DNA of 61,551 nt, filler included, from Ionaspis alba (lineage: Eukaryota), in the NCBI GenBank assembly GCA_964255285.1. It is 7 parts of 7 records of this genome, joined end to end, with 100 filler letters (N's around TTAATTAATTAA, not from the genome) between each part and the next. Parts side by side here need not be neighbours in the genome. Positions count along the whole stretch, not along the records: positions 17,649 to 26,360 come from CAXUUL010000710.1; 6 more parts are not named here. One strand, 5' to 3'. The notes under the pieces were generated by a model, which saw nothing but the letters and a program-made list of their open reading frames with translations, did no database searches and had not been told where the DNA came from. The position numbers and the translations under genes are program-made. Shown here in pieces: positions 8,735-26,460 of the stretch (the first letter of the stretch is position 1; every line of letters begins with the position of its first letter).

Positions 8735-8834
8735 NNNNNNNNNNNNNNNNNNNNNNNNNNNNNNNNNNNNNNNNNNNNTTAATTAATTAANNNNNNNNNN
8801 NNNNNNNNNNNNNNNNNNNNNNNNNNNNNNNNNN
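8735..8834. other. Artificial contig spacer (N44-TTAATTAATTAA-N44)
   Basis: 100 nt with a six-frame stop linker; identical to five other spacers in the window. Confidence 0.98.
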
Positions 8835-17548: not shown

Positions 17549-17648
17549 NNNNNNNNNNNNNNNNNNNNNNNNNNNNNNNNNNNNNNNNNNNNTTAATTAA
17601 TTAANNNNNNNNNNNNNNNNNNNNNNNNNNNNNNNNNNNNNNNNNNNN
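17549..17648. other. Artificial contig spacer
   Basis: N44-TTAATTAATTAA-N44. Confidence 0.98.
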
Positions 17649-20267: not shown

Positions 20268-20579
20268 GATGGAGTTGCTGGCGGATAAGGTTGTGTAGAT
20301 GTCACTTGTCTTGAGCAGAGTAAGTCCTCGGGAAGAAACTTGTATTGCGCAATCAAAGAAATTGCTTATCCGAGGGCTTGGCGCGTATTCTGCGGTCAGC
20401 CTTACTCATGCCTCGGCCTAGGGACCGACCAGTATCAAAGTTGCTACGAACGTAGTCTGGAACGTGATGATTGTAAAAGATGATCTATCTACTAAGTGTC
20501 CATAAGGCCTTAAATACTATGGCGGTAGCATTTACCTGCTGGCTTACCCACATATACGCGCATATATACGGCTATACCT

Positions 20580-21185
20580 TAACAAAAACGGCAAATTACA
20601 GAGATGAACCTCAAAAACGATCTTTTTTACAATTCTGACCCCTATTTTACAAATTTAACCTTTTTTTATGCAATTATTTAATTGTTTTTTAATTATCGTT
20701 TTATTTGTTAAATCACGACGTATATAAATCAGCTATTTCTTATTTAAACAAAACAATTAAAAATAATATAAAATCGCCTCGATAAACGTATTTATATAAA
20801 TCAAAAATAATCAAAAAGAGATTATAATTGAGAAATTTATTGGAGATAAAAAATAAAAATAAATTTAAATTTTGTAATAATTAATATATTACGCTAATAA
20901 TATATATCTCGATATTATCGCCAATTTTTATTTAAATTTAAAATTTAAAAATAATTTAGAAATGTTTTAACGAATATATTTAAATTGTCAAGGTCGAGCA
21001 AGAGATAGTGTCGAGGGATAGGATTAGGTTCGCCTGGTATATAACTATAAAACTCAACCGCTATAAATATAAAATAATAAATATTTAAAATAATATTTAT
21101 CTAATTTGAATAAAATTAAAAGGTTACGATAAATCGAACGAAATACGATAATAAAAATAATATTACTTGCTTACTTACTTGCTGT
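20580..21185. mobile_element. AT-rich RIP-like relic, probably a degenerate transposon
   Basis: About 600 nt of very A+T-rich sequence with sharp edges; TpA-rich with CpG retained (tcg, cga, acg); no ORF. Element class is not identifiable. Confidence 0.6.
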
Positions 21186-21304
21186 CTAACGAGTATGTTC
21201 CCTGGATAATGACTATCTATCGCCTGAAATCCAAAAATATGCAAAACAGCCGAGTCCTGAATCCATGCTCAATCCACCACACTATTTTATAATCCGAATT
21301 TATA

Positions 21305-21339
21305 TTGGGTTGGGTTCTGATATCTATAACCCAACCCAA
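21305..21339. repeat. Perfect 12-bp inverted repeat TTGGGTTGGGTT-(11 nt)-AACCCAACCCAA
   Basis: Read directly from the sequence. Confidence 0.85.
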
Positions 21340-21482
21340 CCTATATTATGGTGCAGCGTATTAATCGCTGCCGTATAGCACCCTTGGTATATAGCTTAGG
21401 CCCTTAAAGCTCCACGCTGTGGATGGTTGTCTTCAAAAAATCTCTCTCTAAAACTTTCTGTAAATGTAAAAGCATACACCCC

Positions 21483-23543
21483 TCACAATAAGATTAGATA
21501 GTTCGAAGGTACTATTCCCGTCTCGTCATTACTATTTTTTGCCTGCCACCATCTGCCACTAACATCTGATACACGAAGGATCTCATTCTTGATGAAACTA
21601 ATCTCGTCCGTATTGTTTGTGTCTGCCTTGTAGCTGTATATTGCCTTGGCGCGGTATGGGTATTCTTCGCCGATGGGGACTGAAAGCTGACTGATTGAAC
21701 TATGACGGATTGAACTATGTAGGAACAGATCTTCTTCGCTGGTGGTGAGCCCTTGCTGTGTTGCAGGTACGAACTCGTCTGGATGCTGACGATTTGTGAC
21801 ACCAGGTATGTAATCAATTTGTATTATATCGGAAGCACGAGTGAGCACCGTTGAGGATATGGAAGCGATTGTGGATCTTGTATCGCCTTCTTTATTAGCA
21901 TCGTAAACCGTTCCTTGAGCCACGATTGCCTCGTCGTCGCTCGCCTCCAGAATTTCGTTCTGGTCGCTATCGTCATCGTTGCCGGATGAGTCCTCGCCGT
22001 CGTGATCGGACACATTGGCTACTTTCAGAGCCGATAGAGCTAGTTGCTCAAGATGCCTTCCTAGATGACGTCGTAGTTGCTTTTTAGAGCCATAAGGCAA
22101 GGAGCCAGGCTCTTTGATTCCAGATCGCACGTCACGCTCATGCGATTGTTCCAAACCTCGGGACCAGTCCTTGCATAATAGGCACGCGTTCCCGTAGAAC
22201 TTTTCTTCATGCTCTTCGCACCGTGACATGATAGCTTCGAGTTGTGGTTGCTCGATCTGCGTGGATCGCGATGAATACGCATCGGCATGCACTGTCTGCA
22301 GATGCCTTGCGAAAGCGCCCTTTGTCTTGACAGGCTGGTACTCGCAGTATACACATTTCCACTGTCTCCTGTGGACTTGTATCTCGTGTTCAAACCATCT
22401 TCGTCGGCTCGCAAACATGATCAGTCCACATGCTTGGAAAGTACAAAGATATGGTCTCAGGTCGTTGAAAACGTGTTTCCTTTTGCTGCTTTAGTACCTG
22501 AGATTGTACAAACATGCCACCACTTACTTCCAATGATGCTTGCTCCTACAGATTTGAATTGTATAACAATACGGGCATTGAAAAGGCTCTCCATATGATG
22601 AAGAGGCCGGCAGTCGAGGCACATTCAGGATACCAGAAACATCTTCGTCGAACACGGTTGGCGCATACGAGGTTCGCGAGCCTTCCGATTCTGTGTCCTG
22701 ACCTACTTGTTCTAGGATCTCAGCCATGTTGATTCCAGGTTGTGGCACGTGCGTCGTCGCTTTAGTGAATGCTAGACTTTTCGCAGCCTCAGACTTCTGC
22801 ACATTTGCTATGACCTCCGATGATAGCTTCTGATGATGCTCTTCACGATATCGCAGAAAGGCCCTTCGTCTCGTGATTGCATGGCCAAGGCGATCGACAA
22901 GCCACCGCTTCCTGGGATCGATTTCTCGGAACTTGTCGCGCACATGCCTGATGTCCCATTCCGTTGGAAGACGATATCGAGAGGTAGCGCGGTCGTAGTC
23001 GTCCTCAATTGGCACTTTTCTGATCAATATGGACAGGCGGAAAAGGTTTGTGATAGCGGCCTTGACAGTGGCGATCAGTTCTAGAGTATCGGTCGTTTCA
23101 GCCTCTACATGTTCCATCGGTTCGTCAAGATCCATCTCAGTATCGCTGTAGAAATCTGCAGCTACAGTGGCCTCTGAGGGCACAGCGATGCTCCAAGGTT
23201 GATTTCGGCTGGGGTCTTGTATAACAGTGAATGCTGTCCAATTTCAGCTACGAGCGTTTTTGGTGTCATCCATCGCACCTTCTTCCAAAGACGCTTTGCA
23301 GTGGCCAAGGAGCTTCAAAACCATTGTCCGAGCATCCTGGTCGTTGTGTAGACGGCTCTCTAATGAGCTAGGCAATGATGGTTTCTGAGCTGCACCAATG
23401 TTATTGGCCCATATCTCTAGACGCTCTTTCTCCGTATTCACGGCGAGCAATGTCGTCTCGTCGCAGAGCTGCGCTAGCTCTGAAAGATGTTGAAAGGCTG
23501 CCTCGCAGCTCTTGTAGCGTAGTGCTATTGTATCTGACTCCAT
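21483..23543 (-). CDS. Fungal helical-N-terminal / C2H2-like zinc-finger protein with a C-terminal Sho1-like SH3 domain, 3 exons (23543-23279, 23233-22528, 22479-21483), ~655 aa
   Basis: N-terminal [11 protein letters not shown]...[48 protein letters not shown]...[19 protein letters not shown]...WFEHE...WKCVYC...HL; CLLC...[11 protein letters not shown]; terminal SH3 [12 protein letters not shown]...EISF...GRWWQAK...[11 protein letters not shown]. Intron phases are consistent. Confidence 0.85.
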
Positions 23544-23750
23544 TGGAAGAGCTATCACTCAGGTTGGCAATAAGTAGATAGGTCTACATCACAACTCGAA
23601 GATTGAGGACTCTTGAGCATTACGTCGACTGGCTCATATGACATCGAGCTGGTGTTGAAGGTGGGGCCGTCCAGCTACCCCTCAGCCTCACAACATTGTA
23701 GTAGAGCAAACTTCGCTTTCTCGCATCATTGCGTTTTTAGGGAATATGAG

Positions 23751-25831
23751 ATGACCGGAATAGAAATAGCTGGCCTAGTTCTTGGGGGATATCCTGTCCT
23801 TGTCTGGACCTGCGAGAAGTATAAAGACGTCTTCCGAGGCCTTGAGGGCTGGCGTGCCTTCCGCAGTCGGTTCGAAGACTTTACGCTCTCCCTCGAGACG
23901 CAGAGACTTTGCTACCGAGATGTGCTCAAGAGCCTTTTGTGCCTAGGCCCCAATCCATACCTCCAGAATATTGAAGAAGCTGGCGCATTCTTGAGCGATC
24001 CATACCACGAAGGATGGCGCAGCAATGAGCTGGCAGAGAACCTGAAAGACCGCCTGGGCGAAAGGTACGAGCCGTGCGTGGCCATTATAGACAAGCTCAA
24101 TGGTATCATGACGGAACTCTACCGACTCCTAGACATCCAACGCGGCCAGGTAAGCCCTTTCACGGTAGTTTCACAGCTTCGAGGAACTACTATACCTTAG
24201 GATGTGGATGCGAGCCCCAGTGGTGCCGCTACCGAGCAAGACTAACACGATCACATCAGATCGGCATCGACGAGGACCACCCTTCGAGCTGGTGGCAAGA
24301 GAAGCTTGATCGAACTAAGTTCAGCTTCTCCACGAAGAGATTCAAGAAACTTGCGCAACTCAAGACGCTCAACGAAGACCTCGAGCGGTTGATCCGTAAC
24401 AGCGACCAGCTTGACGTGCTACGAGCTACATCTAATCCTAGTGCTTTCACCACATTCTTTAAGAAGATCCGAGACAATGCAAGCGGCCTACATGCTGCTA
24501 TTAAAGCAGCATGGACGTGTGACTGTCAGTCGGCCCATCCGACAAGATTGCGCCTCGAAAACAGGATCCAGAATCAGGACCCACCGTTTATGTTGCGCTT
24601 CGATGATCCCAATGCCTCGAAAGCACGGAATATTAGGATTGAGGTTGCTGTGGTCTCCGTAGGGGACTTGGGCCAGACATCGTCCACAACCTCGAAGTCG
24701 GTATCGTTTGTAGCCAGCAGCGTGACCACTCCGGCTATCCCCGTTCGAGCATCATCTGGTCAGAGAAAGAAAGACTCATCGAACGGTAAGAGTATCACTT
24801 CTCAAAACTCGAACCAAGTAGATGTCAAGGGGAGCAAATATTCGAAATTCAGGTTCGTTCCGTTTCTCTCAAAGACCAACAAGGCCGCTGAGACATACTC
24901 GAGATCTGGAGAGATATGGATGTCTGTAAAAGCTTCTAGCTGATCAACTTGCAGTACCTTCTTCCACAAGTTTCAGTGGAATGGTTCCAAACCACCACCC
25001 AGCCAGATATCATCACGAATCCCAGTAGTGCCTCTAGCACATTGCTTCCCAGACCTGCCGAGGAATACCCATGGTGCTGCAATACTGCAACAAAAGAAAG
25101 TGGACGACCTCTGTCGAACCATGCGTTCCAATATAGGAAGTAAAATCTTCTACCTAGGTGACAACAGTCGCAATTATTACCTATCAGAGACCGGACCTAG
25201 CCATGCCGAGAACACAATTACCCTGCGAAGTCTGCTCGGAGAAGGTAAGCTCAGCAAGAGGCAACGAATTCTCATCGCTAGCATTCTCGCATCCTCCCTA
25301 CTCCAACTCCAAAAGACCCCGTGGTCCGCTAATGGCTGGCGCAAAGACCACATCTGGTTCACATATGACCAAGACAGCAGCCAGCTTTCCGAACAGCCGT
25401 ACATAACCCACTCATTCCCTTCAACACGCACCTCTCACCCAGACGGTCGTCGCCAACCCATGGGTGCCAAGCCCAAGAGCCCCTTCGAGACCGTCCTTAT
25501 CCAGTTCGGCATCCTGCTGCTGGAGCTGTGCTTCGACGAGACGATTGAGGCGCGGATGGCGCGGAAGAAGTGGCCCCTAGCTGGGGACACGGAGCACGCC
25601 AGCCCGCTAGAGTACGCGGCGGCGCTGGAGTGGAGCCGAGAGGTGCAGGACGAGTTTCCCGACCTCCAGACGCCGATCGAGCGGTGTCTGAAGGAGTCGT
25701 TTGGTGATCGGATCGACTGGGGGAACCCGCAATTCATACAGAAGGTGTATGCGAACCTTGCAAAACCGTTGCGAGAGACCTTGGTTCGCAATGGATGGTT
25801 GACGGAAAGGTCAATGGATGTATGGTTGTAA
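23751..25831 (+). CDS. Fungal protein with a HeLo-like N-terminal helical domain and a C-terminal degenerate kinase-C-lobe-like domain, 3 exons (23751-24149, 24260-24852, 24955-25831), ~622 aa
   Basis: Start MTGIEIAGLVLGGYPVLV...; W...LKDRLG; RTKFSF; WTCDCQSAH; C-terminal RILIASILASSLLQLQKTPW...WRKDHIWF...PYI...FGILLLELCF...IERCL...VYANLAKPL. Introns GTAAGC...CTAAC...CAG and GTTCGT...CTGAT...CAG are phase-compatible. Domain names are inferred from motif resemblance. Confidence 0.8.
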
Positions 25832-26360
25832 TGCGAGGGATTCTACCGAGCCTCCTAATGCATAAATTGAATATGATGTTTACAAGAAGCGGTATGATAT
25901 TACCTTGGCTCTTCCGGCGCTGATGATATGCTAGAAAGCCACGGCGCCTGTTTGTGTCGTATGATTTTCAGATATGGGAGGTAGGTAACAGCTCATGGAT
26001 TTTCTTAGTCCTGGACGGGGTTTCCAGTGTCAATGTTGCCTGTTCGACGCCGGTGATACAAAGTTACCAGAAGGCTCTAGTGAACGTTTCCCGGCGTTCA
26101 AGGGAAGGGTTAAATTTAACGGAGACCTCGGGTACGGCAAACTAGTTAGATATATACGTGTATGTAGATGTTTGTGAGAATATAGAAATTCAGTTTCGGA
26201 TTCTGGAGTTCCAACTTTGAATTGGCCATTTGATAATGCAAAATCTAGCTGATTTGGCGAGGTGATTATTCATGTTCCTCGCTAACTGTTGCCAGCAGCA
26301 ATTGACTTGAAGCTGGAGTAAGTACCTAAGGCTGTATCTCATGAAATTTCCGCTAAGAAA

Positions 26361-26460
26361 NNNNNNNNNNNNNNNNNNNNNNNNNNNNNNNNNNNNNNNN
26401 NNNNTTAATTAATTAANNNNNNNNNNNNNNNNNNNNNNNNNNNNNNNNNNNNNNNNNNNN
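26361..26460. other. Artificial contig spacer
   Basis: N44-TTAATTAATTAA-N44. Confidence 0.98.

Follow-up and report, generated by a model that had tools for sequence, protein, structure and literature searches.

The locus examined here raises the question of why a predicted zinc-finger protein should end in what looks like the SH3 domain of the fungal osmosensor Sho1. The gene lies in a window of 61,551 nt (the whole stretch of DNA analysed) from Ionaspis alba, GenBank assembly GCA_964255285.1. A first-pass annotation had read its last 61 residues as a Sho1 SH3 domain acquired by domain shuffling, serving either as bait for factors that target HOG signalling or as a link to Pbs2. We found that the unit of interest is larger than the SH3 domain. 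A second captured segment, derived from Opy2, precedes it, and the gene forms the sensor-like half of a conserved head-to-head gene pair; this double capture is real, intact and recurrent. The first pass had missed both the Opy2 segment and the partner gene, and its interpretation is supported in part.

Origin and integrity of the captured tail

The sensor-like gene is intact, with three exons and no internal stops, and its zinc fingers, Opy2 segment and SH3 domain share a single 335-codon open reading frame (ORF). The 61 residues were located immediately upstream of its stop codon. Pfam identified SH3_1 in them (E 2.7e-10). The best of 196 matches in the PDB was 2vkn, 'protein SSU81', which we take to be a synonym of yeast Sho1 (E 1.5e-20; runner-up 7.4e-8). 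The domain shared 45 of 59 residues with a consensus drawn from 15 full-length Sho1 sequences (11 named, 4 unnamed), and a hidden Markov model (HMM) built from Sho1 SH3 domains scored it at 110-112 bits, compared to 15-29 bits for seven other SH3 domains of the genome. These comparisons bear out the Sho1-type identity proposed in the first pass. The phylogeny agrees in part: in an SH3 tree of 75 rows the nearest rows were all Sho1, and support for the branch shared with filamentous-fungal Sho1 proteins was modest (80/96, not starred; few columns, bootstrap unsettled), with one unrelated long-branch SH3 domain of the genome falling inside the group. A full-length Sho1 query aligned only over residues 252-313 and the four Sho1 transmembrane helices were not found in the sensor-like gene, as had been stated earlier; capture of the SH3 domain by domain shuffling is likewise supported.

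About 40 codons upstream of the SH3 domain lies a segment that is identical to the genome's own Opy2 at 23 of 28 positions (E 4e-13; Opy2 HMM, E 6e-15). It includes a short linker motif common to homologues, which the genome's own Opy2 also contains. A 57-aa Opy2 query matched two places in the assembly searched (18.3 Mb in 1282 contigs), namely opy2 and the sensor-like gene. The single Opy2 gene was recognised by PF09463, which occurs once and on a different contig; this extracellular Cys-rich domain and the Opy2 transmembrane helix were not found in the sensor-like gene. The codon agrees with that of opy2 at only 6 of the 23 shared residues, suggesting that the capture is old. Judged by sequence, both captured pieces come from the Sho1/Opy2-Ste50-Ste11 complex.

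A mis-assembly or a wrong gene model might produce such a fusion, since the window is joined from short contigs and the gene model derives from DNA alone. The window consists of several unrelated contigs separated by N spacers, and the sensor-like gene lies wholly inside one of them, C710. Three sequencing runs, all from one study, were compared, including X1, which may be the source sample, and X3. A single X1 contig covers positions 21206-26360 with 4 differences and crosses the junction between the zinc fingers and the SH3 domain. The relative in X3 is ~93% identical over the chassis (the part upstream of the captured tail), has zinc fingers, linker and SH3 in identical order, and agrees with the protein P0066 in its linker letters; one X3 contig crosses the 5' ends of both paired genes. 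Of ~379 differences in X3, 40 were shown and 36 of those lie in exon 3, and the tally of synonymous and non-synonymous changes was therefore not used. X3 covers the gene pair and barely the left-hand neighbour gene; the uncovered part proves nothing on mobility. Mis-assembly at the junction, which the first pass had named as a possible refutation, is largely excluded by the spanning X1 contig and by the like-fused relative X3/P0066, and, with both captured pieces and the zinc fingers in one ORF, an artefact is barely credible.

The captured SH3 domain diverges faster than the rest of the protein. Between the window gene and its close orthologue P0066, 16 of 59 SH3 residues were changed compared to 11 of 135 in the zinc-finger core (Fisher p 0.001). 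True Sho1 SH3 domains are 88-100% identical to one another, and the window SH3 alters 9 of the 47 positions that are invariant in Sho1 orthologues, five of them in the RT loop. Opy2-motif residues constant in true orthologues were also changed. The residues by which SH3 domains bind ligand are kept in the groove (Tyr/Tyr/Glu/Trp/Pro/Tyr), and the net charge has shifted from -2 or -3 to 0. This pattern would suit a bait under pressure. A neutral chimera, in which a shuffling-prone family takes up random fragments and the tail is decaying, would also explain an SH3 domain that diverges faster than its carrier, and the gene adjoins an AT-rich repeat (summed contig depth up to 591, compared to 106 over the sensor-like gene). 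We give this explanation a slim chance: two relatives separated by an in-frame linker indel both keep the frame intact, the capture is old, the same two pieces occur on three carriers, and the core SH3 residues are retained.

Architecture, head-to-head partner and variable C-termini

Upstream of the captured tail is a part that we call the chassis, comprising a helical N-terminus, a conserved region and a C2H2 zinc-finger cluster (Table 1). The cluster corresponds in homologues to PF26082, presumably an AcuF-like C2H2 family, and an acidic stretch follows the zinc-finger core in most relatives. P0002 and P0003 show the same architecture as the sensor-like gene. No PDB relative of the conserved region was found by sequence, the alignment profiles A3 and A4 matched neither a solved relative nor each other, and the ESM Atlas gave no family name for the N-terminus. 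No NACHT or NB-ARC domain was matched by Pfam in the exon ORFs of the sensor-like gene or its partner.

The partner gene is divergently transcribed, and the intergenic region is probably a shared promoter. Its product has a conserved hydrophobic N-terminal helix within a helical domain, a middle domain and, in the last exon, a DUF7580 domain (Pfam E 7e-16). An AlphaFold2 model of the DUF7580 exon made with a 21-sequence alignment reached a predicted local distance difference test score (pLDDT) of 74, compared to 37 for a single-sequence fold. On comparison of the modelled domain with 48,161 chains, all 50 matches listed were kinases or pseudokinases (Z 10.5-13.4). The best of these was TNNI3K (Z 13.4, root-mean-square deviation (rmsd) 5.2 over 176 residues); MLKL was also among the matches listed, at Z 11.0-11.2 (rat, Z 11.2, rmsd 3.1, 144 residues), as was Arabidopsis MLKL3 at Z 10.9. 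The HRD motif was absent from 21/21 aligned partner sequences. The model and the alignment support the identification of this domain as a pseudokinase. HeLo-type domains start with a hydrophobic helix, and by analogy the N-terminus of the partner may be a killer domain of the HeLo/MLKL type. Proteins that combine HELL with a pseudokinase have been described in outline in fungi (PMC12881547, PMC9815663; papers are cited here by PubMed Central accession, each for the portion that was accessible).

We scanned metagenomes for the chassis, which yielded at least 51 loci. Among the matches listed, an opposite-strand DUF7580 gene lay upstream in 31 of the 32 loci that have at least 3.4 kb of sequence upstream of the zinc-finger core (tblastn with the window partner detected 23, and an HMM made from 16 of these together with the window sequence added 8); after collapse at 90% identity the figure was 21 of 22 among the matches listed. 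A further locus with less upstream DNA, L026, retains the 5' part of a partner. Across 13 loci, the distance measured between the start of the N-terminal chassis match and the partner start codon was 0.2-1.1 kb. The genome's second clear family member, on contig C401, is likewise paired, and its SH3 domain presumably resembles that of Ras exchange factors. There were only four DUF7580-like matches in the whole assembly, so chance would seldom place one beside a chassis gene.

The C-termini of the family vary. The C-terminal extensions of 46 of the at least 51 loci were inspected, and a Pfam scan of 65 of 180 candidate ORFs, many without a match, identified within the zinc-finger ORF PHD (L018), RRM (L019, L020, L033, L064), RhoGEF (L050, L060), Rua1_C (L045, L046), TPR (L052) and ankyrin (L057, L067) domains. 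Downstream ORFs, assumed to be later exons, encode RRM, GYF, CNH, Bud6_N with ankyrin, TPR, and NACHT with ankyrin. Neither a Sho1 SH3 nor an Opy2 piece was found among the metagenome loci, many of which are cut by contig ends. The labels DUF8035-like, RfeG-like, vWA-like and Bem1 used in the trees are our own assumptions.

Three further loci were observed. At L043:7359-10414, NACHT and ankyrin sequences lie directly 3' of a partnered zinc-finger chassis; if they form a single gene with it, this chassis is joined to a complete nucleotide-binding leucine-rich repeat-type receptor (NLR). Contig C394 has a DUF7580-like gene whose N-terminus is helical (L079:5676-7256, +), head to head with a long protein-kinase gene (L079:1785-4769, -). 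This kinase resembles the type that carries Sho1 SH3 domains in P0127 and P0017, and the two genes may represent another kind of sensor/pseudokinase pair. On contig C196, a 1201-codon ORF (L078:368-3970, -) combines a helical N-terminus with a DUF7580-like part, and a zinc-finger neighbour was not seen in 10 kb.

Table 1. Positions of the paired genes, their parts and their surroundings; window coordinates unless a locus is named.
Feature	Position	Strand	Description
Sensor-like gene	21483..23543	-	655 aa; exons 23543-23279, 23233-22528, 22479-21483; open spliced frame
Introns of sensor-like gene	23278-23234 and 22527-22480	-	45 and 48 nt; GT..AG ends
N-terminal helical domain	23279..23543	-	weakly HeLo-like
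Conserved chassis region	22528..23233	-	fold unknown, probably helical; ends in CxxC; alignment A4 (19 sequences)
C2H2 zinc-finger cluster	22035..22475	-	PF26082 in homologues; Cys/His invariant across 18 sequences
Acidic linker	21927..22007	-	joins chassis to captured tail; from sequence
Opy2-derived segment	21789..21872	-	28 aa, from conserved cytoplasmic tail; probable Ste50-RA-binding motif
Sho1-derived SH3	21486..21668	-	ends at stop; TGA 21485-21483
Divergent intergenic region	23544..23750		207 bp, between start codons 23543 (-) and 23751 (+)
Head-to-head partner gene	23751..25831	+	~622 aa; exons 23751-24149, 24260-24852, 24955-25831; gene model
Second pair in the genome	L071:6535-8779 and L071:3742-5133	+ and -	contig C401; chassis with non-Sho1 SH3 and further zinc fingers
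AT-rich multi-copy repeat	20450..21300		27% GC; adjoins 3' side of sensor-like gene; context, outside the module
Contig joins	8735-8834, 17549-17648, 26361-26460 and later		44 N + 12-base spacer + 44 N

Recurrence of the tail, its possible target and the proposed module

An HMM of the Opy2 tail was run on 177 proteins and found its four source proteins together with P0026 (the sensor-like gene's own fragment), P0066, P0027, P0003 (from Pyrenula), P0123 and P0001 (a NACHT protein). A Sho1-type SH3 domain is present in all six of these non-Opy2 proteins; the set came mostly from SH3 searches, so the co-occurrence is biased. A search with the Opy2 motif only (69 candidates of 579-2000 aa) gave five matches: three Opy2 proteins, one Opy2-Ras gene model and P0003; P0001 was missed. 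In a chassis tree of 40 rows, the window gene, P0066 and P0027 formed a clade (100/99), the latter two filling less than half of the columns, within an 18-row clade (100/97) that excludes P0003 and P0123. The first version of this tree lacked P0003, P0123, P0025 and P0022, which have short matches; the second gained P0003 and P0123 and omitted the long-branch loci L061 and L067. A single clade of all five bearers of Opy2 and SH3 was rejected by the approximately unbiased test (p-AU 0.017), and the double tail is therefore placed on two non-sister zinc-finger lineages. Counting the NLR as well, the tail may have been captured repeatedly or may have moved as a ready-made cassette; the SH3 tree cannot tell a single from a multiple origin. 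The Opy2 motif shows two parallel changes, each shared by the window gene and one of P0003 and P0123 and absent from their close orthologues, in a small sample.

Related tails were also observed on other proteins. Among 68 proteins scanned, a Sho1-like SH3 without the Opy2 piece ends other zinc-finger chassis, kinases, a TPR protein and a second NACHT protein. The related NACHT proteins P0001 and P0011 end in two and four Sho1-type SH3 domains, respectively, and the Opy2 piece is found only in P0001, between the SH3 domains. In P0004, a fragment of the zinc-finger chassis precedes an SH3-PX block and a Sho1 SH3, a further double capture; we take the block to be Bem1-like, so that the capture would be from mitogen-activated protein kinase (MAPK) and polarity scaffolds. 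Arrays of Sho1-like SH3 domains occur in tyrosine-kinase-like, TIR, RING, VHS and GAT proteins (P0023, P0039, P0041, P0046, P0020, P0034, P0109 and others). From these sequences, capture of the Sho1 SH3 seems frequent across fungi.

What might the double tail bind? We take the captured 28-aa segment to be the element named CR-A. The Opy2 of Bipolaris has a CR-A region and binds Ste50 (PMC13062926); that of Metarhizium is described in one paper as resembling CR-A (PMC5691130) and in another as lacking it (PMC10512405). In yeast, Opy2 binds the Ras-association (RA) domain of Ste50 and the Sho1 SH3 binds Pbs2 (PMC13233613), and peptide motifs of the Opy2 tail bind RA (PMC6589780). We predicted the complex of the Opy2 segment with the RA domain of the genome's own Ste50. 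The score was 0.39, compared to 0.01 for the best of three controls, with contact agreement of at least 73% and partner pLDDT of at least 49, and was rated weak. Of 78 solved complexes, 51 passed the mark used for such scores, as did 2 of 108 mismatched pairs; passes at scores of 0.60 or less comprised only 5 of the 78 solved complexes and all 4 mismatches that passed, in a calibration without peptides. The prediction thus weakly supports binding of the Opy2 piece to the Ste50 RA domain.

The partner of the SH3 domain is less clear. Coupling to Pbs2 and HOG signalling, as the first pass had proposed, is doubtful. It agrees with the SH3-Pbs2 binding in yeast and with Alternaria, where Sho1 is reported to act upstream of Ste11-Pbs2-Hog1, to signal via Ste11, and to bind Ste50 and Ste11 (PMC11047198). 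Against it, the Aspergillus nidulans PbsB lacks the Pro-rich Sho1-binding motif, according to a review (PMC3153207), and Sho1 of Verticillium contacts the Ste50 orthologue through its SH3 region, which binds the middle region of that protein (PMC6916341). In yeast, Ste50 binding needs the transmembrane part of Sho1 (PMC4411306), which counts against Ste50 as the SH3 partner. By analogy with these systems, both pieces may plausibly dock on the MAPK adaptor Ste50 in filamentous fungi, and Ste50 would be a likelier partner of the SH3 than Pbs2.

We propose that the two genes form a paired surveillance module of a non-NLR type, in which the chassis would control the pseudokinase partner and the tail would report interference with the Ste50-based MAPK module; we rate the chances of this slightly above even. 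The sensor half would consist of the constant chassis and a swappable C-terminal tail taken from host proteins, here a double capture from one signalling complex that joins the Opy2 Ste50-binding motif to the Sho1 SH3. The executioner half would be the divergently transcribed partner, whose hydrophobic N-terminal helical domain and pseudokinase follow the layout of MLKL. The tail would most likely hook onto the Ste50-Ste11 module by two-point binding of Ste50, as a guard, or imitate its docking sites, as a decoy. A factor of an antagonist, or an incompatible allele met after hyphal fusion, could then bind or alter the tail or Ste50, upon which the chassis would release or activate the partner, and the partner would damage the membrane and cause cell death. 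By analogy, the sensor-like and partner proteins may interact, and the role of the module may be immune. The decoy idea of the first pass is plausible; it is strengthened by the conservation of the partner, by the family's variable C-termini and by how fast the SH3 diverges.

Signalling could instead be the output. A soluble mini-scaffold made of Opy2 and Sho1 parts, clustered by oligomerisation of the chassis, might bring Ste50-Ste11 together with the downstream MAPK kinase and fire the cascade. The meeting of Ste11 and Pbs2 is the activating step in yeast (PMC13233613), the Sho1-type SH3 accompanies the Opy2 piece in all six bearers, one of which is the window gene's own fragment, and the core ligand residues are kept. 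We consider a scaffold unlikely on balance. PHD, RRM, RhoGEF, TPR and ankyrin domains, which have no common output, take the same position on this chassis elsewhere; the membrane anchor is missing; RT-loop and Opy2-motif residues invariant in true orthologues are changed; and the co-occurrence reflects SH3-led gathering, the Opy2-motif-only search having given a single such fusion. A non-immune modulator is improbable. Such a soluble protein would compete with the membrane sensors, titrating Ste50 or further Sho1 ligands away from them, or would link a zinc-finger regulator to MAPK signalling, for which the lack of transmembrane anchors on both pieces and the weakly predicted binding to Ste50 RA would speak. 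It leaves unexplained the near-constant DUF7580 partner among the matches listed, the same tail on a NACHT NLR and the accelerated divergence.

Several observations weigh against the surveillance module. A signalling scaffold, too, would carry two pieces docking on one adaptor, and relaxed selection fits the fast divergence of the SH3 too. The kinase resemblance of the partner is to kinases in general and not to MLKL particularly, and Foldseek on this domain gave no match at E of 0.001 or below, all rows being kinases. HeLo was detected in 0 of 13 sequences of the partner N-terminal domain at E 0.1, and no relevant PDB sequence match was found for it; its ESM Atlas cluster (score 0.80; members 37% DUF7580 and 27% HeLo) is a lead only. 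The chassis N-terminus matched Pfam HeLo at E 0.0014-0.0026, with 18-19 bits below the cut-off of 23.2, and HeLo was not matched in six chassis homologues. The metagenome loci were all gathered from one conserved pattern, one of them, L048, lacks a partner, and among the bearers of Opy2 and SH3, which include P0003, P0123 and P0027, pairing was checked for the window gene and its X3 relative.

The separate intact sho1 gene looked for on the advice of the first pass was not confirmed either. An SH3 query, a full-length Sho1 query and a degenerate motif with two mismatches found no sho1 in the assembly, in which opy2 and ste50 are both present. This counts against the surveillance module, since the decoy model expects a sho1; in a fragmented assembly, the missing gene does not show absence from the genome. 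The same result would suit an SH3 domain that is all that remains of a single sho1 gene, moved to a new place and now replacing it. Such a replacement is very unlikely, as failure to find sho1 in 1282 contigs weighs little, the window SH3 is more diverged than true Sho1 SH3 domains, and like fusions occur in several other fungi.

If the surveillance module is generalised, the zinc-finger chassis would belong to a widespread Ascomycete immune family that collects baits and is arranged head to head with an MLKL-like executioner, a paired design free of NLRs. We put this broader proposal a little short of an even chance. If true, the tails would form a catalogue of fungal proteins that antagonists attack, and the joint capture of Opy2 and Sho1 SH3 on three chassis would mark Ste50 as a target, held by a two-point hook.

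Comparison with known systems

Few candidate fungal immune receptors have a known natural trigger. With its exchangeable baits, a two-gene module is small enough to test and supplies candidate targets, and a bait assembled from two proteins of the same complex points to a single node, Ste50. Should the tail be a scaffold instead, the locus would represent a MAPK cascade naturally rewired to an intracellular receptor. The pair with its double capture is apparently undescribed. In the literature searched, which included few subscription papers, DUF7580 was not found, and searches on Sho1/SH3 on fungal NLRs, fungal decoys, head-to-head pseudokinase pairs and het-v gave no description of this pair. 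It was not found in the accessible portions of PMC10197012, PMC13449251 and PMC9262711. In the accessible main text of a survey of Sordariales NLRs (PMC12258605), SH3 and Sho1 are absent, and nothing matching SH3, Opy2, DUF7580 or AcuF turned up in 12 of the 17 supplementary files; the other five may bear on this. A review states that guard-guardee roles outside allorecognition are still to be established (PMC10197012).

Known systems resemble the pair in different respects. Plant paired NLRs with integrated decoys include RGA5/RGA4, RRS1/RPS4 and Pik-1/Pik-2. The present genes share with such pairs (PMC12258605) the head-to-head arrangement, the short intergenic region, one member with variable host domains and a fast-diverging capture. 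In contrast to them, neither gene has NACHT/NB-ARC or leucine-rich repeats, the chassis being a zinc-finger protein and the partner a pseudokinase. Sordariales NLRs with putative decoys (PMC12258605) likewise carry host domains at the C-terminus of candidate receptors, as do the NACHT proteins P0001 and P0011, whereas the sensor-like gene is not an NLR; head-to-head NLR pairs are rare in that survey (13 of 225 two-gene clusters).

The partner resembles MLKL and the fungal HeLo/HELL-pseudokinases (PMC12881547), and HET-Vb (PMC9262711), in its helical N-terminus, hydrophobic first helix and C-terminal kinase-like domain without HRD. It differs from MLKL and HELL proteins in its extra middle domain, the relation of its N-terminus to HeLo/4HB being putative, and from Podospora HET-Vb, which carries TUDOR and pairs with a methyltransferase (PMC9262711). 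The tail is clearly derived from Sho1 and Opy2, which act upstream of Ste50-Ste11, in both its SH3 domain and its cytoplasmic motif. Unlike these two proteins, the sensor-like gene has no transmembrane or extracellular parts, changes residues that are otherwise invariant, and brings pieces of two genes together on one soluble chain.

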